DNA of 64,000 nt from assembly GCA_964187785.1 (NCBI GenBank), contig OZ076418.1, positions 34,162,001 through 34,226,000 of the forward strand, written 5' to 3'. This document shows, piece after piece, positions 1-25,700 of this stretch; the first letter of the stretch is position 1; the number at the start of each line of letters is the position of its first letter. Position numbers and translations under genes: made by a program. The notes under the pieces are model-generated. The model made no database searches, was not told the origin of the DNA, and saw nothing but the letters and a program-made list of their open reading frames with translations. This stretch comes from Amphiscolops sp. MND2022. Its lineage: Eukaryota.

Positions 1-56
1 ATTTTTGCAACGTGTCAGATTTTAATTGAGAATTGTTTTGCACAAGACTAACATTC

Positions 57-305
57 CTAATACCACCACAAGAACTTATCACAGCGTTTCCCTCCGTAAA
101 GTGGCGGACAAAGGCAACCTATAATGTTTTCTTCCACATGACTAAAACATTCTCCTTCAATCATACAATAGTCTTGGTACTCTTCAATGTAGGGATCGGG
201 ATTTCGTCCCACTTTTTCTGTAGTCCTTACTTGATATATAAACAAGCCAGTAGTTATGACAATAAAAAACGCTCCTACTAATACTTTTGCTAGAGTCTCA
301 CTCAT
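57..305 (-). CDS. Small EGF-like growth-factor protein with N-terminal hydrophobic anchor/signal; Cys1 replaced by Tyr
   Basis: Hydrophobic VLVGAFFIVITTGLFIY, then Y39-x7-C47-x5-C53-x10-C64-x-C66-x8-C75 with YGGKRC. This is the EGFR-ligand spacing CX7CX4-5CX10-13CXCX8C. Y39 is TAC, one transition from TGC (position 190). Confidence 0.8.
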   Translation of the reverse strand: MSETLAKVLVGAFFIVITTGLFIYQVRTTEKVGRNPDPYIEEYQDYCMIEGECFSHVEENIIGCLCPPLYGGKRCDKFLWWY

Positions 306-371: not shown

Positions 372-623
372 TTATTCAAACAAACTACGATACACAGAGT
401 TTGGTATATTTTCCAGTCGTGTCCCAAATGGACGGCTCAGGCATCTATGCAGCGGTGGTGGTTGCAGGGGTCTCTGCGACTCGGGTGTTGTGGGGTACTC
501 GTTCGCTTTATCTTGTTCATCGTCAATCTCTATGGGGTAGTCTGCGCTTCCTGCAACGGGAATGTTTTCAAACAGTGACGGAGAGAAGGGAGTATCAATG
601 CCTGGTCGATACACAGCATCCAT
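372..623 (-). CDS. Hypothetical 83-aa acidic/proline-rich Polinton protein
   Basis: ATG-initiated and co-oriented in the tightly packed cassette; no recognisable domain. Confidence 0.55.
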   Translation of the reverse strand: MDAVYRPGIDTPFSPSLFENIPVAGSADYPIEIDDEQDKANEYPTTPESQRPLQPPPLHRCLSRPFGTRLENIPNSVYRSLFE

Positions 624-650
624 GTCTATGTTCGGATTCTCCCAATGGAA

Positions 651-950
651 CTAAATATCATCCAAGTCACTGGGAGCGAAATCGCTGCTTACATCGTGGT
701 CACCAACGCTGGCCCGGACCTCGTCTTGCATCTCCCACGTGCCTTGCTGATTGGGAGTTATAGGGACGCGAGCTAAATGGTTGTCCAGGAACTGTTGTCT
801 TTGATTTATCAAAGAGTTGAAGGCTGCGATTGGAAGTTCCAAGGAAGAAATTGTCAAGTCTTGGACCATATCTTTCACTATGATTGTGACAGAGTCCGGT
901 GAAAAGTCCAGAGTCCACTGGGTTCCGTTGTTGGAGACTGAGAAGAACAT
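651..950 (-). CDS. Hypothetical 99-aa Polinton protein
   Basis: ATG-initiated, ~30-bp spacers to both neighbours, protein-like composition; no recognisable domain. Confidence 0.6.
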   Translation of the reverse strand: MFFSVSNNGTQWTLDFSPDSVTIIVKDMVQDLTISSLELPIAAFNSLINQRQQFLDNHLARVPITPNQQGTWEMQDEVRASVGDHDVSSDFAPSDLDDI

Positions 951-980: not shown

Positions 981-1445
981 TTAAGGTTGAAATGAAATGA
1001 ATTGTAGTTGCTTGAAAAATGACTTTTTAAGGATATTGAACAGCCAATAGGAACTTGACACGTCCACTACCCTACATGGACTTGATCTTTTTTTGCTGGT
1101 GGTTCTTTTTGCTGGTGAGCGTTGATTGGTTGGTTTTTTTCTAAGGAATTGTCGTAGAGATTCCATTCCTTTGTCGTTTTCAACTCGTTCTTTTTGTTCT
1201 CGCTCGTAACCCCTTGTCGTCTTGGCTCTGAATGAATGTATACCAGCATCTTTTAAGATTGCCTGCTGCGTTTGATCCTTAAAAAGAATACCCTGCACAA
1301 GACAATCAGCGTCACACTTTGGACAACTGTAATGATAAAGTTCTCCAGAATCCTCCTTGCAGTAATGTTCGAATATGCATTTTTGTAGCTCACATTCAGG
1401 GCAGTAAACGTCCCCGATTGTATTTATAACTGCGTTGAGGTCCAT
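981..1445 (-). CDS. Zinc-ribbon (CPEC...CPKC) protein with basic C-terminal tail
   Basis: Two CxxC pairs and a K/R-rich tail. Its ATG overlaps the upstream stop (TAATG at 1447-1443). Confidence 0.65.
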   Translation of the reverse strand: MDLNAVINTIGDVYCPECELQKCIFEHYCKEDSGELYHYSCPKCDADCLVQGILFKDQTQQAILKDAGIHSFRAKTTRGYEREQKERVENDKGMESLRQFLRKKPTNQRSPAKRTTSKKRSSPCRVVDVSSSYWLFNILKKSFFKQLQFISFQP

Positions 1446-2075
1446 TAGACGTCGTAGTTGCTTTCAATGATTCCGATCTTGCTCGATATAAAGTAGCGGT
1501 CCTTATACAGTTCGTACAATTCGTTGTAACTCAGATTGACAATTTCTGTCAATACAAACTGATTTCCCCTATATAGAAACTTTTTCAATGAGAAACAACA
1601 ATTCTGGTCTTTTTCAAAGCGGAAAGACAAACGCAAATGACAATCAGTATGCTCTTTTATGTCTAGATAATAGTGTGAGAAGAGTTCGTCCTTCCACAGC
1701 GTAAAGCCAATCTCTTGTAACGGTTTTGGTGGGGGATATAGAGTTGCCTTTCGTGCGTGGTCGTACTGTTTTTAAAAAGTTGCGCAGTCTGTTGAGGGTC
1801 GCAGCGAACTCTTTTTTCGTGATGGAATTTTCCTCTTCAAGGAAAAAGCGTTGTTGAGCTTTCAAGTCGCAAAAAATAAAGACTTTGATTGCAAATAAAT
1901 TTTTATTGGACCCCTTGCTGACTCGCACGAGACGATTGTCCGTCTTGGTAACGTCCAATATGTTGCGGTAAAAGTACGAGTCAACGTCAGCTTCGTCCAA
2001 AGTTTGTTCTGGAACGTCTTCGTAAATTGAATACAGCAAAGATAGGGATGGAAGTTGTTGTTTAACAGACATGAA
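1445..2075 (-). pseudogene. Frameshifted ~210-aa protein with two tandem PC4-like (putative ssDNA-binding) domains
   Basis: ORFs 1644-2138 and 1445-1636 join through one frameshift near 1750; the alternative frame reads TLYPPPKPLQEIGFTLWKDELFSHYYLDIKEHTDCHLRLSFR. The halves align (LDVTKTDNRLVRVSK/FAIKVFIF/SITKKEF vs LDIKEHTDCHLRLSF/FSLKKFLY/NLSYNEL). The PC4 fold is inferred from the strand-strand-helix pattern. Confidence 0.55.
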
Positions 2076-2788: not shown

Positions 2789-5700
2789 ATGCCTGCTCTT
2801 GATCGAAATGAAAAACTTGCCTGCGACAATTGTGGCACTCAAGTATCCAAGAATAACTTGACAAGACATAAAAAGAGGTGTTCCGCTGGGACATTATATT
2901 GCTCTCAATGCCCCAATTTCTCTGCAAAGTCCCAAAATGACTTTAATTACCACATTGCAAAGCAGCATGGAGCTCCCAAGCCTAAAATTGCACACACTTG
3001 TAAAGTGTGTAAAGAAGAATATACTGGTTTTTATGCACTACGACAACACAAAAGTAAAGTGCATGGGCAGAGTTTTAAAACAAGTGGCGATTCTACTCCC
3101 CTCTTTGATGCTATCGATGATGATAATCTCAAGGAAGAACTACTTGCCTGTCAACATTTCCTTGTTGATTCGCAATTGGAAAAAGGACGTCAGAGAGTTT
3201 TCAATTTTGCATTGGATTCTTTTAGTGCTGAAAAAATCAACTCAAAGCTGGATTATGTCTTTCAACAACTCAAATGTGCTGCAAAAATTAATCTGGCTTT
3301 TGGATTTGTTTTAAAAAATATCGAAGATGTTAGTTGTTGTTATTTTTTTGCACACGAGAATAACACTCTGTTGGAGAAGTCTAAATTGTTGAGTACTGGA
3401 GACGACTTGGAACACATTAAAACATCACTCGCTGGGACGGATGTCATTGAATCTTGTGCACGTGAACGAGTCAACACAAAGTGGAAATTCCTTAAACTAA
3501 CAAATGTGACAATCTTTGCTGCCCTACTCAAAGATATTCCAATGGGTTGTAAGGATGCAGTGCTGCCTGAACCTCTATTAAAAAATCGGACTGTCAACTG
3601 CCTCACTTTTGAGCAAAACACAAGGCAACCTTATAATGACAATTTATTTATGCTTGTTCAGAGCCTTGTGCTTACACTTGCACAGAAACGAACGGCTAGA
3701 AGAGGAGACAAACAAACTGTTTATCCTCTATCTCCAAAAGAAAGACGGAATTGAGGCAGCGTCATTTCAAGGTGTTGGCATGGATGATATACCAACAGTA
3801 GAGGAAATATCTGGACTCAAAATGTTCCTTTACGATGTTGACATTGTAGAAGGATCTATTGTCGGTGAGCTGGCGAGAAGGAGTGTACAGAAGCATCCCA
3901 AAACTGTTAGGTTGTTACGCTATAACAGTCACATTTGCTATGTAGCAAACATCCACGCGCTGTTTAACGCTTTCCGTTGCCCGACGTGTGATTGTTACTT
4001 TAATCGTCCAGGCAATCTTGAACGTTATTTACCCACTTGTCAAGAGAGAGTGAAACAAGTGTATCCAAAAACTGTGTATCAGTTGAAAGAAACACTTTTT
4101 CACAAGTTGGATTCCTTCAATATACCTTACACTGTCGAGCAGCAACTGTTTAAGAATGTTGCAATATTTGATTTCGAGTCAATTTGTGTACGGGAAGCTG
4201 GCTTCAAAGACACAGAGACACCAAGATGGATTGGAAAACATGTTCCGATATCTGTATCAATCTCCTCCAACTTATTACAAGAGCCCATTTTAATTTGCAA
4301 CTCCAACCCGCGTGATCTAGTGTCATCTTTTGTGAATGCATTGGAAAGTCTGGCAGCTCAGAGCAAAGCTCAGATGCGAATGAGTTTCCTCGAGATAGAA
4401 ACTGCAATAGAGAGTAGACTCTCACATGTAATGGGACTGTTGAACGAGCGTCGATCGAGGCGAGAAGCTACATTTACATTTGAAGATGAGTGTTGTGAAG
4501 CAGAGGAGTCATCAGAGGGGAAAGACGTATCTACACAGTTCCTACATATGCAAAAGAAGCAGTTGATTCAATTGCAGGAACACTTTGAAAGATACTGCAA
4601 TGTACTGCCAGTGTTTGTTTTCAACAGCGGGATGTATGTCATTAACCTGATCAAGAAGTATCTCTTGCCAATACTCGTGGAGGACAAAGATATTGAACCT
4701 ATTGTGATCAAGAAGGCAAACCAATACGTGTCATTCAAGTTTGGTGATGTTCAATTATTGGACATTCTGAACTTTCTTGGAGGTGCAACTAACCTTGACT
4801 CTTTCCTTAAGGCATACAAGACGGAGGAGACAAAAGGTTTTTTCCCCTATGAATGGTTCGATGACGCGGAGAAACTATCACTCGATCATATTCCCCCGTA
4901 TGAATGCTTTTACAGCAAACTGCGCAATTATAATCCATTAGAGAAGGAGTATCTGGATTACGAGAAGTTAGTGCAGACTGGTTTGTCACAAGAGTCTGCA
5001 ATGCAAAAACTGCGCAAACCTCGTCAGCCACTTACGGGAGAGCAAAATTATGCGTATCTCGTTGAAGTATGGGAAAGAGAAAAAATGACAACATTTAAGG
5101 ATTTCTTGCGCTGGTACAACAACAAAGATGTCTTTCCCACACTTGAAGCAATGCAGAAGATGATTGATTTTTATCACAATAAAGGAATTCATATATTACA
5201 GTTGGGTTGTACTCTACCAAATGTAGCAAACATTTGCCTACATAAGTCTACCCGTGCCAAATTCTACCCCTTCACTGAAACTGACAAGGACTTGCTGGAG
5301 AAAATTAGAGAGGATATGGTCGGTGGTCCCTCTATTGTTTTTACACGCAGAGCTGTAGTGGGCGAGAATTTATCCGCAAATCGCAAAATGTGTGCAAGTC
5401 CATTGTTGGCATTGACGCTAGTCAACTTTATCCGTTTTCAATGTGTCAACCCATGCCTACCGGTCTCTACACCCGATACGAATACGACTCTGATTCGCAA
5501 CGATTCAAGCCTCGTCAAAACAAAACACGCAGCTTTGAAAATATGGTCATGTCTTATTTTCAACGTCTTCGCCCCGAATATAAAATTGAGAGCAATATTA
5601 CTACCGGAACCCAAAAGAAAATTGATTGCTTCAGTGCTGACGGTTTTTGTAGTCACTGCAATACAGTCTTTGAAGCCATGGGTTGCTACTACCATTACTG

Positions 5701-7117
5701 TCCCTGTCAGGAGACGCGTCCATCTCTGAGCGACAAAGAAATGGAGCGCGGTAATAAACGACGAGAAATGGACGAAATGCGGAGAGATTACATTCGTGGA
5801 GAAGGATTTAAAATTGTGGAAATGTGGGAGTGTGAATGGTGGAAGCTCTTCAACACGGAACCCCTTGTCAAGCAGCATCTCAGAGATATGTTTCCATACA
5901 AGTTACCGCTAAGAGAGGAAGGTTTGCTGCAACGCATCAAAGATGGAAACTTGTTTGGTTATGTGCAATGCGATATCGAAGTGCCGGAACATCTGAGGGA
6001 GAAATTTGCAAACTTTCCACCCATTTTCAAAAATACAGACGTTAGCAGAGATGACATTGGACCTTTAATGAAAGAGTATGCTGAAAAAAACAACCATCTT
6101 TCTCAACCTCGCCGAATGTTGATATCAAGTTTCCATCTAAAGAATGGTACTTTGATCACTCCGCTATTTTTATTTTATTTGGGTTTGGGACTGGTCTGCA
6201 CAAAAAAAAACCGCTTTTAGGAATATACTCCAATGAAATGCTTCAACAAGTTTGTGCAGTCAGCAGTGAATGCTAGACGAGAGGGTGATGAAAACCCAAC
6301 TTCAACTGTTGTTGCAGAGACAATGAAGCTGCTTGCCAACAGCTCCTATGGTTATCAGATTATGGACAGGAGTCGCCACACAGTGACAAAGTATCTGAAC
6401 GATGAAAAAACCCATGCAGCAATAAACAACAAATTGTTTAAACGACTGAATTGCATAAATAACAATTTATACGAGGTTGAACTTGCTAAAGTTGAGGTAG
6501 AGCATAAAGAACGCATCATTGTTGGGTTTTTTATTTTGCAGTATGCAAAGCTGAGACAGCTTCGAACTGTACTACAATTTCTTTAAAGAGTTTTGCAATG
6601 AAGTTATGTATGAAGAAATGGAAATGGACACAGACTCACTCTATCTAGCGTTAGCGGAAAACAGTATGTATGATTGTATTCAAGAAGACAAGAAGGAAGT
6701 GTGGGAGTTTCTCCGCAGTGAAGACTGCAATGACAATTTTGTAGCGGATTCCAGTGGTAACTTTTTCCCACGCACGTGCTGTGAAAAGCACAAGAAATAC
6801 GACAAGAGAGAACCAAGTCTTTCTGAAGAGGAGCTCCGCTGCGCTGAAATGTTGTGTCTCTGTAGCAGTCGGACAAGTACAAATTCAGTAGCAAAGGACT
6901 GAACAAGCGTACCATTGAAGACTGTGGCGATGGACCAATGACCAAATATCGGAGAGTCCTAGCTGATCAAGATAACGTAACGAGCGCCGACAGAGGTTTC
7001 AGAACTAAAGACCACAGTATTGCAACATATGAACAGACAAAAAAGGGATTCCCTTACTTTTATCCAAAACGAATAGTTGAGGAGGATGGAATCCACACTG
7101 TTCCCTTAAACCTTTAA
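2789..7117 (+). pseudogene. polB: Protein-primed family-B DNA polymerase (Polinton type) with N-terminal zinc fingers and inserted Vsr/PD-(D/E)xK-like domain; about five frameshift/stop lesions
   Basis: ExoI IFDFES, ExoIII YNNKDV, IREDMVGGPSIVF, motif A GIDASQLYPFSM, motif B KLLANSSYG, motif C MDTDSLY, C-terminus YFYPKRIVEEDGIHTVPLNL* (TAA 7115-7117). Three CxxC...H...H/C fingers follow the ATG at 2789. ADGF..NTVFEAMGCYYHYCPC...IVEMWECEW is the endonuclease-like insert. Confidence 0.93.
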
Positions 7118-7250
7118 AAGACAATTTTGTAAATTGATAATTTCTCCTAAGTAGGTATAGTACATTTATACATTATAATTTAATTTTTTTTCTATTTAAA
7201 CATGACTTTTTTCCTCTACAGAGTAGTCAAGTAAATAGCTAAACCTTTAT

Positions 7251-7749
7251 GCCGGATAAATTATTCCCGTGGCGGATAAATTTTTGCGGTGACGGATAAA
7301 ATATTCCGCAGGCGGATAAAATATTGCGCGGGCGGATAAAATATTGCTCGGGGGCGGTCGTGGCCACCAAAAAATCAATTTTTACCCAAAGTCTCACAGT
7401 GCCGAAAATGTCGCACAGTCCCGAAAAACCCTATTCCCTACCTTAAAACATTACCGAAGCTATTCCCTATCTTTATAGATTGAACACATCTTTATACATT
7501 GACAATCACTCGGCTCCATACCAAGTCGTCAGCCAATCAGTATGGAGCACGAATACACGACTCGAGTCGTTAACCAATCAGAATCGAGCACGACTACACG
7601 ACTCGAGTCGTCAGAATCGAGCCTAAGCGAATCCAGGGGTGGAGGTCCCTTCTCGGCTCTCGGCTCCAGCCGAACGGCTATAGCCTATGTTAAAACATGG
7701 AGGGACCAACACCCCCCCCCCCACGTGATCTGCTCACCCTCTTACTACT
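7251..7749. repeat. Putative right terminal inverted repeat with internal arrays
   Basis: Five 20-bp units with core CGGATAAA (7251-7350). Two 41-bp units each carry CCAATCAG and the 14-bp palindrome ACGACTCGAGTCGT (7557-7570, 7598-7611). A poly-C run and the terminal TACTACT follow. The inner TIR boundary cannot be fixed without the left end. Confidence 0.65.
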
Positions 7750-9524
7750 GGCAGATAATGGAGAGTAACATTCGCAAGCCAACAATTTCTCAAGAAAGGA
7801 AATTTTCTTAAAGCTAACTCTTTGAATTCGCTTTTTTTAATACTAAAAGCGTCTTCGTAATTAAAGTGGAATTCGTCTATAAGTAAAACAGATTTTTGTA
7901 GATCTTGCACTGGTTTTGAGAAAACCTTTTTTTCTAAATCGTTGTCTGATATCAAATGAACCTTTGCTTCTATTTTGTTTCTCGTGACAAAATCTTTGAC
8001 AATTGTGTTTAACTGTTTTCGCTCCCAGGTTTCTTCGTTTCTTGGCACCGGAATACAGAAGTAGACCCCATCAATGCTTTCATCCAGGGCGCTTTGAAGG
8101 GCTTTCGCAAGCAACAATTGAGTTTTTCCTGATCCGGCTTCCGCTGGACAAAACAAGAGTCTAGGATCTTCGAGAATAATACCAAATTGCTGCGGGGAAA
8201 GTATGATGTCCAGTTTATGTAGAAATTCATTTGTTTTGTCATCGGAACTTTCAAGAAATTTGTTCAAAAATTTTTGCTGGCAATCGATGTACCTTGAAAA
8301 CGTACCTTGATTGCTCAATTTCTCCAACGTAGTCGTACATACTCGGACCTGGGCCCATTTTTTGTATGATTTCTCTTTCGTTTAGGCTTAAGGTGCGAAA
8401 TATGTAGCTTGGCTCAATGAAAAAATGTTTTTTTTTCAAATGTACTACGATGATGAAAATTCAGAAAGAGATTAACCTGTTCACAGTTACCGAAAAACAC
8501 TCTTTTGCAATTATGGAGTAAAAGTTGCGTTTTTGTTCGTCATTAATCTGACTTACTTTATGATCGCTAAGAAAACACTGCCCACTTTCTCTCAGAGCGT
8601 TAATCAAACAAATGGTCCATATTAATTTAGCAGCCTAATTCTAGGTATTTTTTTGTTTCTTGAATCTTTCCGTTGGGACTTTTCGCCAAGCATTGTCCTA
8701 AACTTTTTTTTTATTATCAACAATTCAAAAGCTCGTATAAGAGTAATTCAATCACAGAACTTGTCTACTTTTCTCTAATGACATCTATATTAATTGTAAA
8801 ACGACACTTATAAGATTACCGATGTTGTTTTTGTTCAAAATGCGTGACAAAAAAGAGCCCCACCAGGAAGTAGCCCAGGACATTCAAAATGTTCCAGTAG
8901 ATCTTGTCCCGGCTTCAAAGGATACAGTTTTGTGTTTTTTATTCTGTCGAAATCTGGCAATGTGATCAGAGTAGAACCCAATCTCGAGAAATATTGATCA
9001 CAGAAAAGTTTCAAATCAGCATCACTGTGCAATGAGACGGACAGAGAACGTTCTCTGCTGATACCAGCATCACTTTGGAAAACATTTTTCCGAAGGTACA
9101 ACTCCTTCTCACTGGGAACAACCGAATGAAGTTTGTCGATGTCTACTGTGTCCATGATGCCACTACCAATAAGAGTCTGAGGTATCAACGATTTGATAGC
9201 ATCAGGGTCCAAAAATTTGTGAACTTTGGAACCGTTGATATTCTTTCGCGTATATCTCACTTTGTGCATAGTTAGCAGAAAGCATTGCACTTTAATTTTT
9301 TCTAAACAGTCATTGCGTTGGTCGTCGGTGAAGTTTTCTTCCGTTTCGTCGAAACAAACAAAGCACAAAAAGGTCGGAGTAACTGTAGTTTGAAAAACAT
9401 CACTCAAAATATTTGTCTGGATGGCTATTTCATGGCAGGTTTTTTGGGCTCTTTCAATAATTGACTGTTTTCCACTAGTGGCAATGCAGTTCACAAAGAG
9501 AACCACCGTTTTTTGACTCGTCAT
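7750..9524 (-). pseudogene. P-loop NTPase gene (SF1-helicase/Schlafen-DUF2075-like), disrupted and truncated by the Polinton
   Basis: Q-motif-like LSPQQ, Walker A PAEAGSGKT and Walker B VLLIDEF in ORF 7734-8327. Upstream fragments are 8251-8439 and 8835-9524. The last residues of the ORF (VVRG*) come from Polinton terminal sequence. Confidence 0.7.
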
Positions 9525-15899: not shown

Positions 15900-18800
15900 T
15901 ATGTCACTCTACACCAGGAAAAGATCATTCCATCGATAAAGAGACTGACACCGTTCTTGACCGTGATGGGATTAGACATTCTTTCGACACCAGCATGCCG
16001 GCATCATTGGACATGTTAACTGTGGACGAGCCTGCCAGTTTCTTTATTCCACCTGGTGATTCTACTATAGAGACCCCAGATACAACTTTCAATGTCGTGG
16101 ATAATAGCCCTTTGACTGGTGTTGTTGGCGAAGGAGAGAACGCAAGTAGTCATGAAAGTCGTGCATCCGAACCTACACCAGCTCCCGCTAGTGGAACATC
16201 GTGTAGGTCACCATTCTCTCATTATCTATTACGAAGTGGGCAAGATGAAGATCACACTGTGTAAGGCCATGATCCGCTCCCTAGGCCCCCCAGGCGCCCG
16301 CCTTGCAAGCTGATAATTTTGTTACTAGTGCCGAATTGAAAGCGTTAGAGCGACGGATGGAGGTACTAGTCAACTCCAAACTCCAACAGACCTCGACCAC
16401 TATTGTCCCTGCCACAGTCATAACTCCCTCCAATGACGGAGCGACTCTTGTTACTTCTCGACCCAGGACTGCAAGCGAGAAAAGGTCACCAATTTTGCCC
16501 ATCAAAAGACGGATATAAGCGTGTATCCCTACCACTGAAAACACCGATCTAACAGCTACCACTTCAGACGATCAAGTCATGGTTCCAAAGAGACCAAGGC
16601 CCAGAATGCAACTGTCAATCCAGATGTTCAAAAAACACCCGGGATTCAAGTTCTTCGTGACTGGGCCGGAGGACATTTACAAAAATCCCTATAAATGGCG
16701 CTGCCCAGTTTGTCAAGTAGAACTCTAACAGAAAACCAAGGGGTTACTCGAAATACTCTCACATTACCGTACTGATGCTCACCTGATCCGCGAACATCGA
16801 ATCAGACTGGAGACCCCAGGCCTCTGTTTGACCGAAATGGGCGAGAATTAACTGGATCCGCACTTGATGAGGCTAGTGAACGAGCAAAGTTAGAATTTCA
16901 AAACCAACGTTGGGTGAATGTTACTTGATTCCCGGACAAAAGGAATTACCAGTAGACACCGGGGTGTCAGATCCTTCTGCCATTACTTGCTCCCAGATGC
17001 GAATTTTATTGATGAGGCTCCAAAGTGGCGGCAGTTTGGACATTTTACTTCTTTTTGGACCAACTTGGGTATGGAAGCGCAACGGTATGCCAAAATTCCA
17101 CAGTATGATTGGAAGCAGGAACGGGTCTTCGTAAGTATTCTTTTCGTATTTTTATTTCCAGAACCTCCTATTATTACTGGACGTTGATTTGTTTTCTACA
17201 AGGAATTCTCACCTACAGGTTCCATGAGTTACTGCGATACTCGACTTCTTCCATCAGCCAAAGTGGGCATTGTTCTATGCAATTCCGTACTACCGATATT
17301 TCTTCTCAGATCAACTTAGCCTTCTGGTCAGGGAACGTGTATAACTGTCTCTGTCACGCTGAATTCCAGAACAGTCTTCTGACATCAAAAAAGGCACTCG
17401 AAATCCTTTGTTCTTTCCACGCTATACCAAGTTTCTCTCTAAAGGTCTATTCTTTACTCGGATTTGACGGACGAATTAACAAAATCTTGTTAATCGAACT
17501 AAATCAAGCGTCATCTACTTGTGTGCTTCCTACTTTTGGATACGATGAGTTATATAAAGTCCTTGCTGGGCCTTGCGTCAGAATTCTTGGTCGTTACGAT
17601 CACCAGAGCGTGTTGCAGTTTCTTCTCATGAAACTCCGTACTGCGACAGATTCAGCTTGGCTAGATAACCTTCCTGAGTTACGACAAGTAGGTTTTTTAC
17701 GCTGTAACTTTGTTCCCTTTTCAATTTGTTTCCAACTTCGGTTTTTATACTGTATTCGGAAAAGCGAATTATACAGCATAATTTTGGTCTTGAATTCTAA
17801 AATTTTGTTTGTTCTGATCATGCTGTCATCATTCCAAACTTCGCATAATTGTTTCCACATGTTGTTGTTTCTGAAACCGCATAAATCATACCTCTATGCT
17901 GTTTTCTCTTGTTAACCGCATGATTCCTTCTTTTATGCTGTTTTCTCGCGAAAACCGCATGATTCCATCTTCTATGCTGTTTTCTCTTGAAACCGCATGA
18001 TTCTTTCTTTTATGCTGTTTTCTCCTGAAAACTGCATGATTCTTTCTTTTTTACTGTTTTCTCCTGAAAACCGCATAATTCTTTCTTTTATGCCGTTTTC
18101 TCCTGAAAACCGCATGATTCTTTCTTTTATGCTGTTTTCTCTTGAAAACCGCATGATTCTTTCTTTTATGCTGTTTTCTCCTGAAAACCGCATGATTCTT
18201 TCTTTTATGCTGTTTTCTTCTGAAAACAGCATGATTCTTTCTTTCATGCTGTTTTCTTCTGAAAACCACATGATTCTTTCTCTCATGCTGTTTTCTTCTG
18301 AAAACCGCATAATTCTTTATTTTATGCTGTTTTGTTCTCAAAACCGCATGATTCTTTCTATTATGCTGCTTTTTTCTGGAAACGGATGATTCTTTCTCTT
18401 TCCTGTTTTCTTCTGAAAACCGCATGATTCTTTATTTTATGCTGTTTTCTTCTGAAAACCGCATGATTCTTTCTTTTATGCTGTTTTCTTCTGAAAACCG
18501 GATGATTCTTTCTCTTTTGCTGTTTTCTTCTGAAAACCGCATGATTCTTTCTTTTATGCTGTTTTCTCCTGAAAACCGCATAATTCTTGCTTTTATGCCG
18601 TTTTCTCCTGAAAACCGCATGATTCTTTCTTTTATGCTGTTTTCTCTTGAAAACCGCATGATTCTTTCTTTTGTGCTGTTTTCTCCTGAAAACCGCATGA
18701 TTCTTTCTTTTATGCTGTTTTCTTCTGAAAACAGCATATTTCTTTATTTTATGCTGTTTTGTTCTGAAAACCGCATGATTCTTTCTTTTATGCTGTTTTC

Positions 18801-20694
18801 TTCTGGAAACCGCATGATTCTTTCTCTTTTGCTGTTTTCTTCTGAAAACCGCATGATTCTTTATTTTATGCTGTTTTCTTCTGAAAACCGCATGATTCTT
18901 TCTTTTATGCAGTTTTCTTCTGAAAACCGGATGATTCTTTCTCTTTTGCTGTTTTCTTCTGAAAACCGAATGATTCTTTCTTTTATGCTGTTTTCTTCTG
19001 AAAACTGCAAGATTCTTTCTTTTATGCTGTTTTCTTCTGAAAACCGCATGATTCTGTTTACACCATGCTGATATCTTTGTGTTTCTGAATAGAAACTTTT
19101 CATTATCCCGTATTTGTCTAATTTCCGCATAAACTACATAATTTTTGATGTATGAGTTGAGCCGTCGTATGCTGTATCCGGAAAACCGCATATTGCATCA
19201 TGATTTTTCATTTCCATTGTGAATCGAAAGGCTATAAACCCTTCTTATTGTGTTTTCTTCGTGTTTCAGGCCATCATTCGTTTCGAGTATAGCCATCAGC
19301 AAACAATCGTCATACTGGAATAGCTCTACAAAAACTGGTTTCATGTTGTGGCACATCTCTGTTTAGCCGATCGAGTGAAAGCTTTCAAGTATCACATGAA
19401 AGAGGTTATTATCATTCTATTTCAACCTGACTTTCTACTTGTCCGTTTTTATCGAAGTTTTTTTGTGTTCCAGACTAAAAGCTTAGATGAGACGATCTTC
19501 AAAGATAAATCATATCCTGCCAAAATGTTCTTGTTCCGCAATGTGCTTCTTCATTGTTTGTTTTCTGCTATTCATCTCTTGATCTCAGTGTTTTTGGTTT
19601 TTAACTTCATTTTATTTAGACCGGTCAGCGTTTAAAGGAGTTGAAGTTAACTGTGACTGCTTCCGGCTATACAACTCGTATGCTATCTTTGTGTATAGAC
19701 AACTTCAGACTATTTTACCTGACTCATACCTGGGTGATATTTCCAATTGGGATATTTTCTTGTCGATTGATCTTTCCGCACCCGATTTGCCCTTCAAGAA
19801 TGTAACAGTCTTGGAGAATAAAGACATTGCAGATTTGATTGCTCAGAGTGACTTGCCGACCCCGACTCATTTCGTTGAGCAGGCTTTGTGTTTTTTCAAA
19901 ACTTTATGCATGTTACTTTTTAAGCATAGTATTCGAAAATCCAAATTAACCCGAGGAATGTCTATTTTTGACGAGGCGGTGATTCTTCACGAGGAGGAAG
20001 TCGATTATATACAAGAGTCAGAACAATTATGTGACTATCTTGTTCATCAAAAATGGATTTCTGATTCCACTAAATCCTTCGTCCTCAGTGAATATACCGT
20101 TTTTTTTGTTGAGAAATTTAGATCATGCGATATTAGTTGCGACACCGATTGGACATCGTTGATGTCGGGTTTTACAAACTACATTGCCGTACCAACTTGT
20201 TTATTGTCTTCAAACTGTGTTGTCTCAGCCTGTCCAATGCTCTCAATGTTCCCTCGCCTTTTGTTGTTACATTGCCCGACCTAGCTTCAGACAGGAGTGT
20301 TTTCGACTCTGCTGTTAAAAGTATACAGTCTTCTGTGCTTGGGATCCCAAATGTTTACGGACTAATTTCAAATTCTCGAACCGTGGCTCCTCATTTTGCT
20401 CTACTTGGGAAAGGCAGGAGTTTGTTGGAAGAGGAAGCTTATTCTGTCTGGGATTTCACTACAGGTTGTGTGTGCCGTCGCTGTCGGCTCAACAATCGAG
20501 TTGAATCTCGATATATTTGTACTGTGACCGGTGAGGAGAGGCTTTGGACTTCTATGGAAACTCATCCTAATCAAACTAGCTCCAGCACACTTTCGCCAAC
20601 TAGGAAGCCATCATCGGGGACTACTAAATCTCCCAAACTTCTTGCGCCTAATCCAAAGTTTGTGAAGCCTACTCTTATTCCTGTTGGTTCCTAA
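15900..20694 (+). pseudogene. Spliced antisense gene of element A: hAT-type C2H2 finger and helical C-terminus resembling a degenerate hAT transposase
   Basis: CPVC-x16-H-x5-H at 16702-16782. Exon frames are 16910/16918-17130, ~17200-17687, 19270-19404, 19474-~19542 and ~19620-20694. Introns 17688-19269 (GTAGGT...TTTCAG) and 19405-19473 (GT...TTCCAG) are both phase 0 and frame-preserving. The hAT call is a by-eye inference. Confidence 0.65.
17873..19060. repeat. 39-bp tandem array, ~30 units, each an imperfect inverted repeat
   Basis: Consensus GAAAACCGCATGATTCTTTCTTTTATGCTGTTTTCTYCT; period confirmed at 18144 and 18183; lies inside intron 17688-19269. Confidence 0.95.
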
Positions 20695-21123: not shown

Positions 21124-24100
21124 TTAATGTCTGCATGAGCCCGAGTAGTAAGGATTAGGGTTTGGGCGTAAATGGTATTTTTCACGCCTTGTATTAACAA
21201 TTTCTTCTGCTTCTTGTGCATCAATTTCTGTGTTATTTTCGGGAGTTTCTAGGGAATGTTGGGAAGGATTTTCTTGGGAATTTTCTGGATTTCTTGAAAT
21301 TTCTGGTATGGGCTTATGATTTTCTTTTTCTGTAAAGTATTTTCTGATTATTTCGGGCTCTTCATCGTTCACAGCAGGTTGTTTTGCTGGGGTCCCCCAC
21401 ACTGTTTTGAGAACTTTTGGGGGAGGGGGGCGGTATATTTCAGGTTGAGAAGTAGGTTCATATTCAACTATGTTTTCTTGCTGATCATTAGTTTCGTGTT
21501 CTGTATCAAAAGGGCTCGATCCAAAATTAGTGTCCAAGTGTGTGCATATAGATCATCTTGGGCAATGAGTGTATCTTCTTTTTGCCAATCAGCTTCTCTT
21601 ACAAAATTATCTGACAGAGGCGCTTGCGGAATGTATATTGGTGATCGAATGGGATGAAGTAATTGGGTTTTATCTGTGCCCAATCTACGGACAATGTAGT
21701 CATTGTTTGGTAGGACTTTCTCGTCTTCATCAGGGCCAACCCAACGAAATGCGCGGAAGGGTAGTTTAGTCGCCTGTGTATCGGTTTTCGGGTTCAAAAT
21801 AAAGCAGTAATCCTGTGTTGTGTCGGAGAGGTGCTGCTTTTGCTTTTCGGTCGTATTATGCTTTGTATTTAAGGTAAGATTTGTTTTTTGGAAAATTTTG
21901 TTTTTCTTCGTTTGGTCATGAAGAAATGCATTACGCCGTTGGACTTCTTCTGCTACCTCAGTTTGAGGTTGATAGCGAGGATCTGGGTTATACCCAAGTT
22001 TAAAATCCAAAAAGTTGTGCGGGATTCCTCCATGGAAGACTCGTGTTTGTTCGCATCCGAGTGTTGCATGGTACGTCGTGTTATGGTTTACGACTGCCAA
22101 AGGGAGAAACTTATGTATGCCAGTTATTTCTGAATTCTCCTGTAGCTGCTTTAAAATGCGCTTTGACTGATGCGTGTGTACGTTCTAACAGTCCAATTGT
22201 TTGGGCATGTTTTGTTGTGGCATGTTTGAGTTCTATGTTTAGAACTGCGGCTACTTCTTTTGTAACCTGAGAATTGAATTGTTTCCCCATATCAGTAATG
22301 ATTGTTGTGGGCAGATATGTATGCTTACATAAAAAGTCCATGATAACTTTTGCTACTGCTGGGGCAGTGATTCTTGTAACTGGGTAGGCAAACAAGTAGC
22401 TTGAGAAAACGTCTATTGCTGTGATGATGTTATCATATCCTCCGCTTGGTGGAAGATTAGGAAGGATATCCATTTGCAATATATCCTCAGGTCATAGGTC
22501 CTATTCAGGACAATTGAGTAATTCAGTTTTGAGGAGGTCAATATTAATTTTCTTGTTTTGGATACACATTTGACACTTTGTCACCCATGTTCGGATGTAT
22601 TTTGCTATACAGGGGTAGTAGTATTTTTGTCGTGCTTCTTGAATCATTTTTGTTCTTCCCGGATGATTTGCATTATGTCCATGAAGGGCATGACGGAATT
22701 CGTCTAGAAGTTGTTTGGGTACGAGAACTTGGTAATGGGAAATCATACGCATGACGTTGTAAAATCTTCGGGTAAGAACATCTTGTCAGATTTCGATGCA
22801 GGGTATATTTTGTAGGTAGTGTTTATATCGGTAATCTTGTGTGAACTCAGTTTCATCAAATGATTCGCTTTCGATTCTAGCTCGAAGATTGCGTAAAACT
22901 GGGTCGTTGTTTTGTTCTAAGCGGATTTTTGAGTTGTCCTTGAAGTATCCTTCTCGGTAATCAACAGTTCCCGCTGTGGGCTTATGAAAGTTTTGGAGTT
23001 CTGACACTTCGTTTTCTGGTTCATTGTGAGTTTCCGCTTTCGCTGTTTTGCGGAGTGATTCTTTCTCCTCCCACAGTTGTTGTTCTGTGGGTGCTTCTTC
23101 GGGAAGAATGTAGAGAGGTTCTTCCTCGGCAACTCCTGTGGACTGTATATTGACTTCGACTGCTTTGGTTGTTACAAGTTTTCGGATGTTCATTTCAAGT
23201 TTTTCAGTTGGGGTTACTTCTGCTCTTGACAGGAAACCAGCAGCTGTGTTCATAGCTCCTGCAATGTGTGCTATGACGAAGTTGTACTGTAGTACATAGT
23301 CGCAGGCGTTCCAGAGGGGTGGTGGTATTATTTTAGTTTGGAAGAAGCGTGTTACTGAGCGGTTATCTGTGAAAACGATAACGGGAAAAACGCTTCCCCA
23401 CATTAGATGTCCAAATTCAGAAAACGCAAAATAAATTGCTAAGAACACTTTTGCGTATATTGACATTTTGATTTGTGTTGGATTGAACGTTTTTGACCCA
23501 AAGGCACATGGGGCATGTGTTTTCCTTCTGGATTGGAGTTTTTGGTTGGGATCATCTTCAATCATGATGGCGTAGCCAGTTGCTGTAAAACTGACATCAG
23601 TCATCAAGATGAGCTGTTTGTTTTTGATCGGTTGTTTGAGGGCAAGACTGCATGGTTTTTCCAGTTGTTGGTTTAGTTCGTTGAAGGTGTCTAGAACTGT
23701 ATTTGATATACAGAACTGTGAAGTTTCATTGGGCAGTTTAAAGAAAGGCGAAAACTTTTCTTATAAACGAGAAATTTAGTTTCTGTAGTAGTTAAGAAAC
23801 CCAATATACCATTGAAGGTTTTTTTTGGATTTTGGGAATTTGAGTTTCTGAAGAAACTGTTTGACTTTTTCGGCTTGTGGAGAAACTCCTTCTGGGGTGA
23901 TTGTTCGTCACAAGAAGTCGACTTGTTTGACTCCAAAATGGCATTTAGCCATTGTGAGCTTGAGTCCTGCTTTTCTAATGCATTCGAAGACTGTTCTGAT
24001 GTTGATGAACAATTGTGTTGAATCATTTGCTGCTATATCAATGTCATCAACGTATTGGGCACACTGATCAGCTTTTATATCATTGTCCAGGTATTCTCTC

Positions 24101-25700
24101 ATAAAGGATGAGAAAGCTGACAGTGAACGGCTCAGACCTTGGGAAAGTCGTCGGTATGCAAACGTTTGGTTGCGAAATTAAAGGCCAGCTCTGCATTGAC
24201 TGGTAGTCCGCCATCTGCAAACAGTGGTTTGCTTGGGAGCAGTCGAGTTTGCAAAAGAGCTTCTTCCCAGCCATGTGCTGTGCGGCATCCGACAACGTGC
24301 TAACTGGGTGGTTGTTGTTGACGTAATCTTGTGAAATGAGGTTAATTATTTTGCGCAGATCCACCAAGAGGCGTAGTCGTCCGTTTGGTTTTCTCGTGGC
24401 AAAAATGGGGCTTGCATATTTAGAGAAAGGTAAAGTTGTGATGATGCCATAACGATGGAGTAGAGCCAGTTCAACAGTTGTGTCATCCTTGAGGTCGATT
24501 GGCGTAGGGAGTCTTTGGCTGTAGGCTGGTCTATCATCATTAGGCGTCAGTTCACTCTTAAATTCTTCTTTGTTAGTGCCAATATCGAATCGATGTCTGG
24601 CGAAGATATCTTGGTAATGTACAAGGATGTCTTCAATGTGTTGTTTTTCGAATGGGCTGAGGGTGGTGTCGGTCCAGTCGAAATGATCAAAGAATTTCTT
24701 CTTTTGATTCTTCATTGTCATTCCGGTTCAGTTGTTCAAGTTGTTTGAGTTCTGTAAGTTCATCAAAAATTCGTTGCTGTATGGGCGTATACGTGGTTGG
24801 ATCGCCGGGTTCTTCAGGTGTCGGGAAACAGTACGTTTCTTGTTCGTCTGATGACTGGTTCGTTTTCATCAGTTGGTTGAGGTATAGATCCGTGTTTTCC
24901 ATGTGTTGGTGCATCATGAAGGTAAGAGTTGATGGATCGACTAGTTTGATGTGTTTGATTTGTTCTGAGGTCGGTACTCGGAAATCTGCCATGTGTGTGT
25001 CCACTGGAAGAGTGTAAGGCATATCCGAGAAGTTAATCACTCGATAACCCACTGCATTGTTGTTTACCGTACTGAGGGAAGAGGTGATGAAAATACTTTC
25101 ATGTTCCTCCATGTGTGAAGACGGTGTCATAATTCTTGTTGCATTGTGGTCTATCAAATGGGTCATTTTGCTTGAGATTGCAAGAGGTTCTCCAGGTTGG
25201 ATGGTGTAGGTACTTCTGGTCAGCAAAGGTGTGGCTACACAGGTATTTGTTGTGTGTTCAGGTCGTAATTGCATCGACAAGTATGGAAATGTTGTTATCC
25301 CTTGTCGAATGTCGAAAAGAGCATTGTTTCTTTGTAGGAAACACAGGCCAATGAGTGGATTCGGTAGTGTTTTTATGACAATAAAACTTTCTTGAAATTG
25401 GAAGTCTGCTACCTCGAATTCAAGGAGGACTGTTCCAATGGGACATTCAAGTTGGCCATTTGCCACTATGATTTGAAAATTTGGTTCTGGACCAGTCTCT
25501 TTGATTGCTTCATTTGATAGAAGTTTAATTTTGTTGAGGCGTGCTTCAGAAATGACGCTGGTGAGCGCGCATGCATCAATGAGTCCATCCAGAGTTAGTT
25601 TTCCGAAATCCATGGGGAAATAAAACTTTTGACGTTTCTTTTTGAGGGTGAGGTTTGTGGAAAGGTTCACATACATGTTTTTGCCTTCATCTGTTGTGAG
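21124..25700 (-). pseudogene. pol: Gypsy pol of element A: protease, RT, RNase H, integrase
   Basis: LIDACA (protease), SPIF..RKPNGRLRLLVDLR, FCKLD, YVDD (24043-24054), TD...AFGSKTF...FTDN (RNase H), H..H..CQMC and QMD..TD.G.QF..ER (integrase); many frameshifts. Confidence 0.93.

Follow-up and report, generated by a model that had tools for sequence, protein, structure and literature searches.

An EGFR-ligand-like gene carried by Polintons of two distant clades in an acoel genome

The growth factors of poxviruses, known from vaccinia virus and from the leporipoxviruses (Shope or rabbit fibroma virus, and myxoma virus), are encoded by small genes of DNA viruses and consist of one EGF module of the ErbB-ligand type. 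They act as agonists, and those of the leporipoxviruses are not known to have a C-terminal anchor. Animal EGFR ligands such as TGF-alpha, HB-EGF, betacellulin, spitz and Hofstenia NRG-1 have a common cysteine spacing and an arginine before Cys6, the latter being a criterion for ErbB ligands in the available text of PMC1618406. Hofstenia NRG-1 has one EGF module next to its transmembrane segment (PMC13046036, available part). Soluble EGF-type ligands without a transmembrane segment have been described, and for one acoel species two ligands were listed, both NRG-type (PMC4914847, available part).

Host-manipulating cargo is also found in the accessory region of adintoviruses, namely Oncoid, PLA2X, GasderminX and homologs of Bcl2 and IAP. 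The Oncoid genes were described upstream of the protein-primed DNA polymerase B gene (pPolB), and the same section on accessory genes names no ligand (PMC8502044, section 3.2). The listed products are intracellular or membrane-active, none being an extracellular signalling ligand, and the term "EGF" is absent from the main text, in its available parts, of the other Polinton papers compared. EGF modules have been reused independently against invertebrate or other hosts in nudivirus proteins (Esparto, Kallithea and Mauternbach viruses) and in the EGF-mimic venom peptides of ants.

Here we describe a gene encoding one such module in Polintons of the acoel Amphiscolops sp. The analysis started from a stretch of 64,000 nucleotides of this genome, called the window below. 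The gene resembles the poxvirus genes in coding for a single module of ErbB-ligand type and in its size, the growth factor of rabbit fibroma virus having 80 aa. Unlike poxviruses, Polintons are integrating, germline-resident elements of 17-24 kb, here in an invertebrate host whose genome also holds a candidate donor; the identity to a poxvirus growth factor is 26%, which points to an independent capture. With the animal ligands the gene product shares the cysteine spacing, the arginine before Cys6 and matches at the profile and fold level, but the gene has no introns, encodes neither a transmembrane segment nor a cytoplasmic tail, and its frame ends seven residues after Cys6. The gene's position in the window's family, upstream of pPolB, is the one described for Oncoid genes. 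A sequence-only reading of the window had placed EGF outside the standard Polinton gene set, and the literature compared agrees with it, listing no ligand among Polinton or adintovirus genes in the available texts. A Polinton-borne EGF ligand was not found described in the literature searched, a body of texts that lacks most subscription journals, Repbase and the adintovirus supplementary maps.

The gene occupies positions 57..305 of the window on the minus strand, as an intronless open frame of 82 aa that comprises a hydrophobic N-terminus, one EGF module and a seven-residue tail. The hydrophobic helix (residues 5-23; 237..293, minus strand) was located by a hydropathy scan and may be a signal peptide or a type II signal anchor; in a natural six-cysteine copy, the peak is a 19-residue window starting at residue 5, with a mean of 2.28. 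In the window's family this short helix is followed by a conserved V-x-T, which we take to resemble a signal-peptidase site. The EGF module (residues 39-75; 81..191, minus strand) has a tyrosine before Cys2, a YGG motif and an arginine before Cys6. Its cysteine pattern is x-7-C-5-C-10-C-1-C-8-C, plus YGGKRC: five of the six cysteines are present, and Tyr39 occupies the Cys1 position. The sequence-only reading had described such a frame, with a hydrophobic N-terminal helix and the spacing of EGFR ligands, and both translation and hydropathy scan agree with it. It had also noted the loss of Cys1 and proposed to look at this codon in other copies; among the 31 ORF copies of the 30 best loci position 39 is a cysteine in 29 and a tyrosine only in the window's and one other. 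The window's own copy is likely a decayed, inactive insertion.

Several searches bear on the type of the module. A Pfam EGF model, proposed earlier as a check, gave a mixed result: the window's ORF matched no family at E≤1, and three six-cysteine copies matched PF00008 at E 0.017-0.059, below the cut-off. With phmmer against the PDB, the window's ORF matched HB-EGF at E 2.2e-5, and 12 of the 14 matches beyond it were ErbB ligands or an EGF-mimic peptide. A family profile of 21 sequences gave 37 PDB matches, the top 28 of which (E 7.7e-11 to 9.5e-6) were 27 chains of ErbB ligands plus an EGF-mimic peptide from an ant. Urokinase and Notch came below the ErbB ligands, at E≥1.2e-4, and one spitz/lin-3 chimera came last, below Notch. 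This ranking of ErbB ligands above other EGF domains of the PDB bears out the earlier assignment of the module to the EGFR-ligand type. A Pfam EGF match at E≤0.1 was obtained for 15 of the 21 profile members, and the arginine before Cys6 is invariant in one alignment (A2) and near-invariant in another (A3). The nearest Atlas clusters, EGF (0.85) and epigen (0.83), are taken as leads only.

A structure was modelled from an unaltered six-cysteine database protein with a 56-row alignment, an earlier model from 14 sequences (pLDDT 54) being set aside. Mean pLDDT was 75, with 77-86 over residues 41-80, and a helix was predicted at residues 2-31. The best PDB match of the model was betacellulin on HER4 (TM 0.88 on the target, E 1.8e-3), and its best viral match was the 80-aa growth factor of rabbit fibroma virus (E 6.2e-4). 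In the fold search no PDB entry matched at E≤0.001 and a Notch EGF ranked eighth, so that the fold alone does not single out ligands. Fold matches to the nudivirus and ant EGF-like proteins had E-values of 0.009-0.6 and were accompanied by sequence matches; the nudivirus proteins are larger, the ant ones are venom peptides, and no sign of common origin was seen beyond the fold.

The element that contains the ORF spans G000:C10:34152315-34169749 (17,435 bp, in the window and the neighbouring stretch). Its termini are AGTAGT and ACTACT and its terminal inverted repeats (TIRs) form a 615-bp pair at 87.8% identity, so that it is a Maverick by the TIRs and AGTAGT...ACTACT ends given in the available text of PMC8097293. 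The right TIR, ending in ACTACT, occupies 7158..7749 of the window and pairs with the left TIR at G000:C10:34152315-34152922. It is followed by a 6-bp target-site duplication (7750..7755, plus strand), the same as the 6 bp before the left end; identical 6-bp sequences likewise flank five elements of the second clade described below.

Between the EGF ORF and the right TIR, the window holds an acidic ORF (372..950, minus strand; 192 aa in young copies, split here by a stop), an ORF with two CxxC pairs and a VxCxE motif (981..1445, minus strand; 121 aa in young copies), an ORF of 208 aa in young copies that is broken here (1448..2072, minus strand), and pPolB with N-terminal C2H2 fingers (2789..7117, plus strand; PF03175, E 1.1e-6). 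The acidic ORF has a purifying pattern, with a shared pN/pS of 0.19. The ORF at 981..1445, upstream of pPolB and adjoining the EGF gene, is "Oncoid"-like by position and motifs only and is without a strict LxCxE. In young copies pPolB is a single frame, some 1,445 aa long, and in the window's copy it is in five pieces with three internal stops; in Pfam, the complete frame from a young copy had zinc-finger matches only, the PF03175 match coming from the window's fragment.

The left part of the element (1..56 and G000:C10:34152315-34162000) extends beyond the window and carries a protease, a major capsid gene, a 119-aa ORF, a probable minor capsid gene, an integrase, a packaging ATPase and six other ORFs. 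The integrase is of the retroviral type (rve, E 1.7e-10), the ATPase is A32-like (Pox_A32, E 9e-7) and the protease is adenain-like (Peptidase_C5, E 0.0067, below the cut-off). The major capsid, a 447-aa ORF, is assigned to the double jelly-roll type: its score against one Atlas cluster is 0.98, and 30% of the members of that cluster bear the DJR-like PF21738. A 267-aa ORF, named probable minor capsid (penton) by size and position only, had no family match in Pfam, NCBIfam or PHROGs searches. In the window's family the EGF ORF sits mid-element, between the virion module and pPolB. Stops or frameshifts are present in the protease, capsid, integrase and pPolB genes of the window's element, which is 92% identical to a young copy. 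Two young copies have TIRs that are 98.7-98.8% identical, and their frames are intact.

Elsewhere in the window, a tandem array of a short unit has long open frames on both strands (17972-19191), and decayed gypsy-like LTR retrotransposon fragments, judged from motifs, lie at 22111-25676 on the minus strand. In the same assembly, sequence around nad4 and sequence downstream of cox1 is duplicated on a mitochondrial contig (L149, G000:C1929:10304-14638), either a real repeat or an assembly artefact. The COX1 protein of the assembly is in line with an acoel host, its best named matches being Symsagittifera roscoffensis (75%) and Baltalimania ylvae (73%), against 61-67% for non-acoels.

A search of the genome with the window's ORF found 613 candidates, and all of those scored were matches (150/150). 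Related ORFs number at least 350 in this genome, in 12 mapped types distributed over two distant Polinton clades. This number is a hand tally (150, plus 148 non-host rows, plus more than 60 close rows) over searches in which 150 candidates each were scored, and further high-copy types surfaced when the genome was searched with profile-matched proteins. When 40 lower-ranked, diverged copies were inspected with 10 kb, a core Polinton gene was found near 39 of them, and the 40th had element ORFs on both sides. The sequence-only reading had assigned the ORF to a Polinton and had named what would speak against this, namely absence from other family members, a position outside the left TIR, or an exon of a host gene. 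The ORF recurs in other family members, as the core genes near 39 of 40 diverged copies indicate, and it lies inside a TIR-bounded element, 9.7 kb in from the left TIR, with another 7.4 kb to the right end. The host ligand gene is on another chromosome and bears introns. A host exon, or an ORF outside the TIRs, is excluded by TIR positions, copy context and host gene location, and a chance ORF by conservation and saturated synonymous sites (see below).

The window's clade comprises types 1A and 1B. The second clade (clade B) comprises types 2-4, 6-9 and 11 and has all its genes on one strand, with EGF coming first behind the terminus wherever one was located. Its identity to the window's family is 47-50% for the integrase, 27-32% for the capsid and 23-26% for pPolB. 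Genes for ATPase, integrase or capsid adjoin the EGF gene in 10 of the 12 types, TIRs and 6-bp duplications were found in types 1, 3, 4, 6 and 7, and the EGF gene points the same way as the virion genes in every type mapped. No core genes are adjacent in type 10. Type 5 begins about 270 bp inside the shared AGTAGT end and had no core genes in the one long stretch examined; a tiny EGF-only element was considered for this type and rejected, the long copy being interrupted by an insertion and the others sharing sequence to the locus ends. The EGF ORF is a fixed, intronless component of Polintons in two distant clades.

Some copies are rearranged. Local tandem duplications of the EGF-bearing segment, with 2-4 copies within 10 kb, were seen at five loci (L012, L066, L083, L084 and L095) and at G000:C6:23.82 Mb. 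A young copy at L037-L039 (G000:C3:15126064-15138664) has a 4.2-kb inverted repeat at 99.5% identity, with pPolB sequence flanking the EGF region on both sides; this rearranged element seems to have no virion module.

Not all Polintons of this genome carry the gene. No EGF ORF was found within 10 kb of any of 20 A32-ATPase loci (0/20), which were hand-picked from 137 matches to span lineages, 8 of the 20 being unalignable to the reference ATPases. Four EGF-negative elements, two of them fully TIR-bounded, were extended to 30 kb and again had no EGF ORF, with positive controls at 4/4. These two results rule out the EGF ORF as a universal acoel Polinton gene. EGF-less elements include the lineage nearest to the window's (pPolB 49-57%). 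The ATPase tree requires two changes of the trait, which could be two gains, by transfer or repeated capture, or a gain and losses. As a first look, 1,409 candidates of the A32 ATPase family were counted genome-wide, and at least five Polinton lineages can be distinguished by gene order (head-to-head in the window's family, one-strand in clade B, divergent in others); the Polinton load of this genome is very large and diverse.

A profile search over 1.84 billion representatives gave 104 matches, most of them proteins of 60-130 aa that combine a hydrophobic segment and a single EGF module with an aromatic tail. Among the proteins recovered, P0035, P0036, P0037, P0062 and about 40 related ones are EGF ORFs with an N-terminus like that of the window's family. 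The best match of P0035 in this genome was 52%, and P0062 had none at E≤1e-12; that such relatives are not found in this genome indicates that other assemblies carry relatives of the EGF ORF. Scans of IMG/VR and of JGI metagenomes gave 24 and 8 pattern matches, respectively, none confirmed as a relative. Word-index homolog searches returned only the window's own family and, for P0083, a transcript-encoded protein considered below, only P0083 itself.

Selection on the gene was measured from variants counted on non-overlapping loci, a set in which 14 partial or <60% matches were left out and high scorers are over-represented. The six cysteines are kept in 44 of 51 copies of type 1A, 14 of 28 of 1B, all 29 of type 2, 13 of 15 of type 5 and all 15 of type 6; six cysteines together with an absence of stops were found in 42/51 (subfamily 1A), 29/29 (type 2) and 12/28 (subfamily 1B). 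In the EGF part, changes private to a single copy were 127 nonsynonymous versus 41 synonymous (pN/pS 0.7-1.0), whereas changes common to at least three copies were 22 versus 19 (pN/pS 0.2-0.4; Fisher p 0.007 for the contrast). A like contrast was seen in seven neighbouring genes, with pN/pS of 0.8-1.4 for private and 0-0.37 for shared changes. The N-terminal part had no pooled synonymous excess among shared changes (p 0.47), and its shared pN/pS in subfamily 1A was 1.19, possibly from misalignment.

Across the 12 types, mean pN was 0.27 and mean pS 0.83, and pS exceeded pN in 66 of 66 pairs, only marginally so for types 6 and 10 (dN = dS = 0.09). Synonymous sites are thus saturated between types while the EGF module is conserved, and the stop falls exactly seven residues after Cys6 in 12/12 types. 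Older copies lose cysteines and gain stops. The EGF module is selected while the elements replicate and decays neutrally after insertion. That the ORF is a stable Polinton gene, as had been supposed, is in keeping with the purifying pattern of the replicating lineage, visible both in shared versus private changes and in the saturated pS.

The host EGF ligand gene (G000:C5:29806634-29819484) has six exons and five introns and encodes a signal peptide-EGF-transmembrane-tail protein. Its EGF module lies near the transmembrane segment, and a phase-2 intron interrupts the module between Cys4 and Cys5. The gene is the ortholog of P0083, a 237-aa protein of the same layout encoded by a transcript from another species. 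The 30 kb fetched around it had no Polinton module except one weak integrase-like match. Stein and Staros gave a Cys4/Cys5 intron and an adjacent transmembrane segment as criteria for ErbB ligands, and intronless exceptions and viral factors also appear in their list (PMC1618406, available text). The host gene has both features and the Polinton genes, intronless and with no adjacent transmembrane segment, have neither, so that we file the latter as viral derivatives and not as cellular members.

Over 43 residues, the host module is 47-70% identical to the 12 Polinton types, with 70% for type 2, 65% for type 11 and 47-49% for the window's family, which is among the least host-like. Host and Polinton modules share the arginine before Cys6, an aromatic residue before Cys2 and an aromatic tail, and the central loops vary widely between Polinton types. 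The Polinton genes run uninterrupted across the position of the host's Cys4/Cys5 intron and are without the C-terminal transmembrane and cytoplasmic parts. We infer that this read-through and the stop before the transmembrane segment are as expected of a captured spliced mRNA.

The phylogeny, which the sequence-only reading had suggested as a check, gave a partial answer. Host and Polinton modules were grouped together against six outgroups in one build (93/95); in a second build the outgroups were not kept together, and internal forks were mostly open. The host module stood with type 2 at 89/91 and 81/77. A single viral clade was neither supported nor rejected (p-AU 0.32) in these unrooted trees, and neither donor nor number of captures was fixed by them. 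Donor and capture number are therefore judged from gene structure and identity, which suggest the EGF-type EGFR-ligand gene of the acoel host as the likely source of the Polinton EGF gene. The host also has an EGFR gene, called from extracellular-domain exons: L, furin-like, second L and domain IV exons lie on one strand at C3:7.617-7.673 Mb. Two more GF_recep_IV matches (L232, G000:C3:12.75 Mb, and L233, C12:26.50 Mb) could be EGFR paralogs or furin-repeat genes.

Our main reading, to which we give a probability of roughly 60%, is that this Polinton accessory gene, likely host-captured, acts as an exported agonist of the host EGFR during an active, probably viral, phase of the element. Its capture would have been from spliced host mRNA. 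The N-terminal helix would route the product into the secretory pathway; the N-terminus is hydrophobic in 12/12 types. Nine of the 12 types have NxS/T sites ahead of the module, and a tenth has less well placed ones; these sites are consistent with a luminal location and with secretory entry. The product may be released as a peptide of about 54 aa or, in families with longer stalks and NxS/T sites, displayed with a type II anchor, and having no C-terminal anchor it would require no regulated ectodomain shedding. It would then bind the EGFR on neighbouring cells, most usefully on neoblasts, stem cells from which the germline also derives. If neoblasts are drawn in or kept cycling, the virus would meet dividing, heritable cells. 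Driving proliferation would be only one option for the product. When nrg-1 or egfr-1 was silenced by RNAi in Hofstenia, neoblasts still proliferated normally but no longer accumulated at wounds (PMC13046036, available part), which makes recruitment of stem cells as plausible a benefit as mitogenesis.

Binding to the EGFR need not mean activation. The product might be an antagonist, a weak partial agonist or a decoy that damps a wound or defence response, and the same conservation data fit such a role, as do the drift of the window's family to 47-49% identity with the host ligand and the wide differences in central loops between types. However, the host ligand likewise has the arginine before Cys6, an aromatic residue preceding Cys2 and an aromatic tail, and the available text of PMC1618406 counts the growth factors of poxviruses among the ErbB ligands; we consider a damping role unlikely. 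A quite improbable alternative is a membrane-tethered attachment or entry factor, an EGF with a type II anchor that sits on infected cells or enveloped particles and docks on EGFR-bearing cells. Such a factor would suit the clade B types with long hydrophobic stretches, N-termini of 40-60 residues and NxS/T sites before the module, and the co-orientation of the gene with the virion module in all mapped types. It would not suit the short helix and presumed signal-peptidase-like V-x-T of the window's family, no envelope or fusogen gene was identified among the element's ORFs, and some Polinton lineages have the same capsid module without the EGF gene.

It could also be that selection operates through the host, some copies being domesticated as an extra source of growth factor and the elements being mere carriers. 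Hundreds of copies exist and many frames are intact (42/51 in subfamily 1A, 29/29 in type 2, with best-scoring loci over-represented), but private changes have a nearly neutral pN/pS of 0.7-1.0, cysteines are lost and stops acquired as copies age, with only 12/28 still intact in subfamily 1B, and the gene remains inside TIR-bounded elements, which makes this the least probable reading of those considered. Very improbable, too, are a neutral passenger and a reversed direction, with the host gene derived from the element. The patchy distribution among Polinton lineages and an EGF tree that is not rootable are compatible with both. Against the passenger, which we regard as largely refuted, stand the synonymous sites, saturated while domain and end point are conserved; against the reversed direction stand the five introns of the host gene (one of them ligand-diagnostic), its transmembrane segment and tail, and the orthologous transcript P0083.

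The data point to viral growth-factor mimicry in Polintons, a virus class for which we found no such description, and the gene itself appears real and well supported. The exported agonist would extend this mimicry, known from large DNA viruses such as poxviruses, to elements of 17-24 kb, with hundreds of datable copies and a donor candidate within one genome. Polinton particles have not been seen in vertebrates, according to the available text of PMC8097293. Since an exported ligand would act beyond the cell that makes it, it is of more use to an element with an infectious phase than to one copying itself inside a single nucleus, and the gene may thus offer a new line of evidence on Polintons as real viruses. 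It would also link a mobile element with EGFR signalling, the pathway by which acoels control the mobilisation of stem cells when they regenerate, and the RNAi and EGFR inhibitors that can be used in acoels make the question of an EGF virokine testable. A bolder version, which we hold tentatively and think rather doubtful as a whole, is that acoel Polintons are active viruses that took the host's wound or regeneration EGFR ligand, removed its anchor and passed the ligand between distant lineages. If this were true, infected cells would mimic a wound signal and attract neoblasts, a signalling route to heritable integration. Maverick elements make up 4.5% of the genome of P. naikaiensis (PMC6451197), and wound-signal mimicry would then go some way towards explaining why acoel genomes are so heavily loaded with Polintons.
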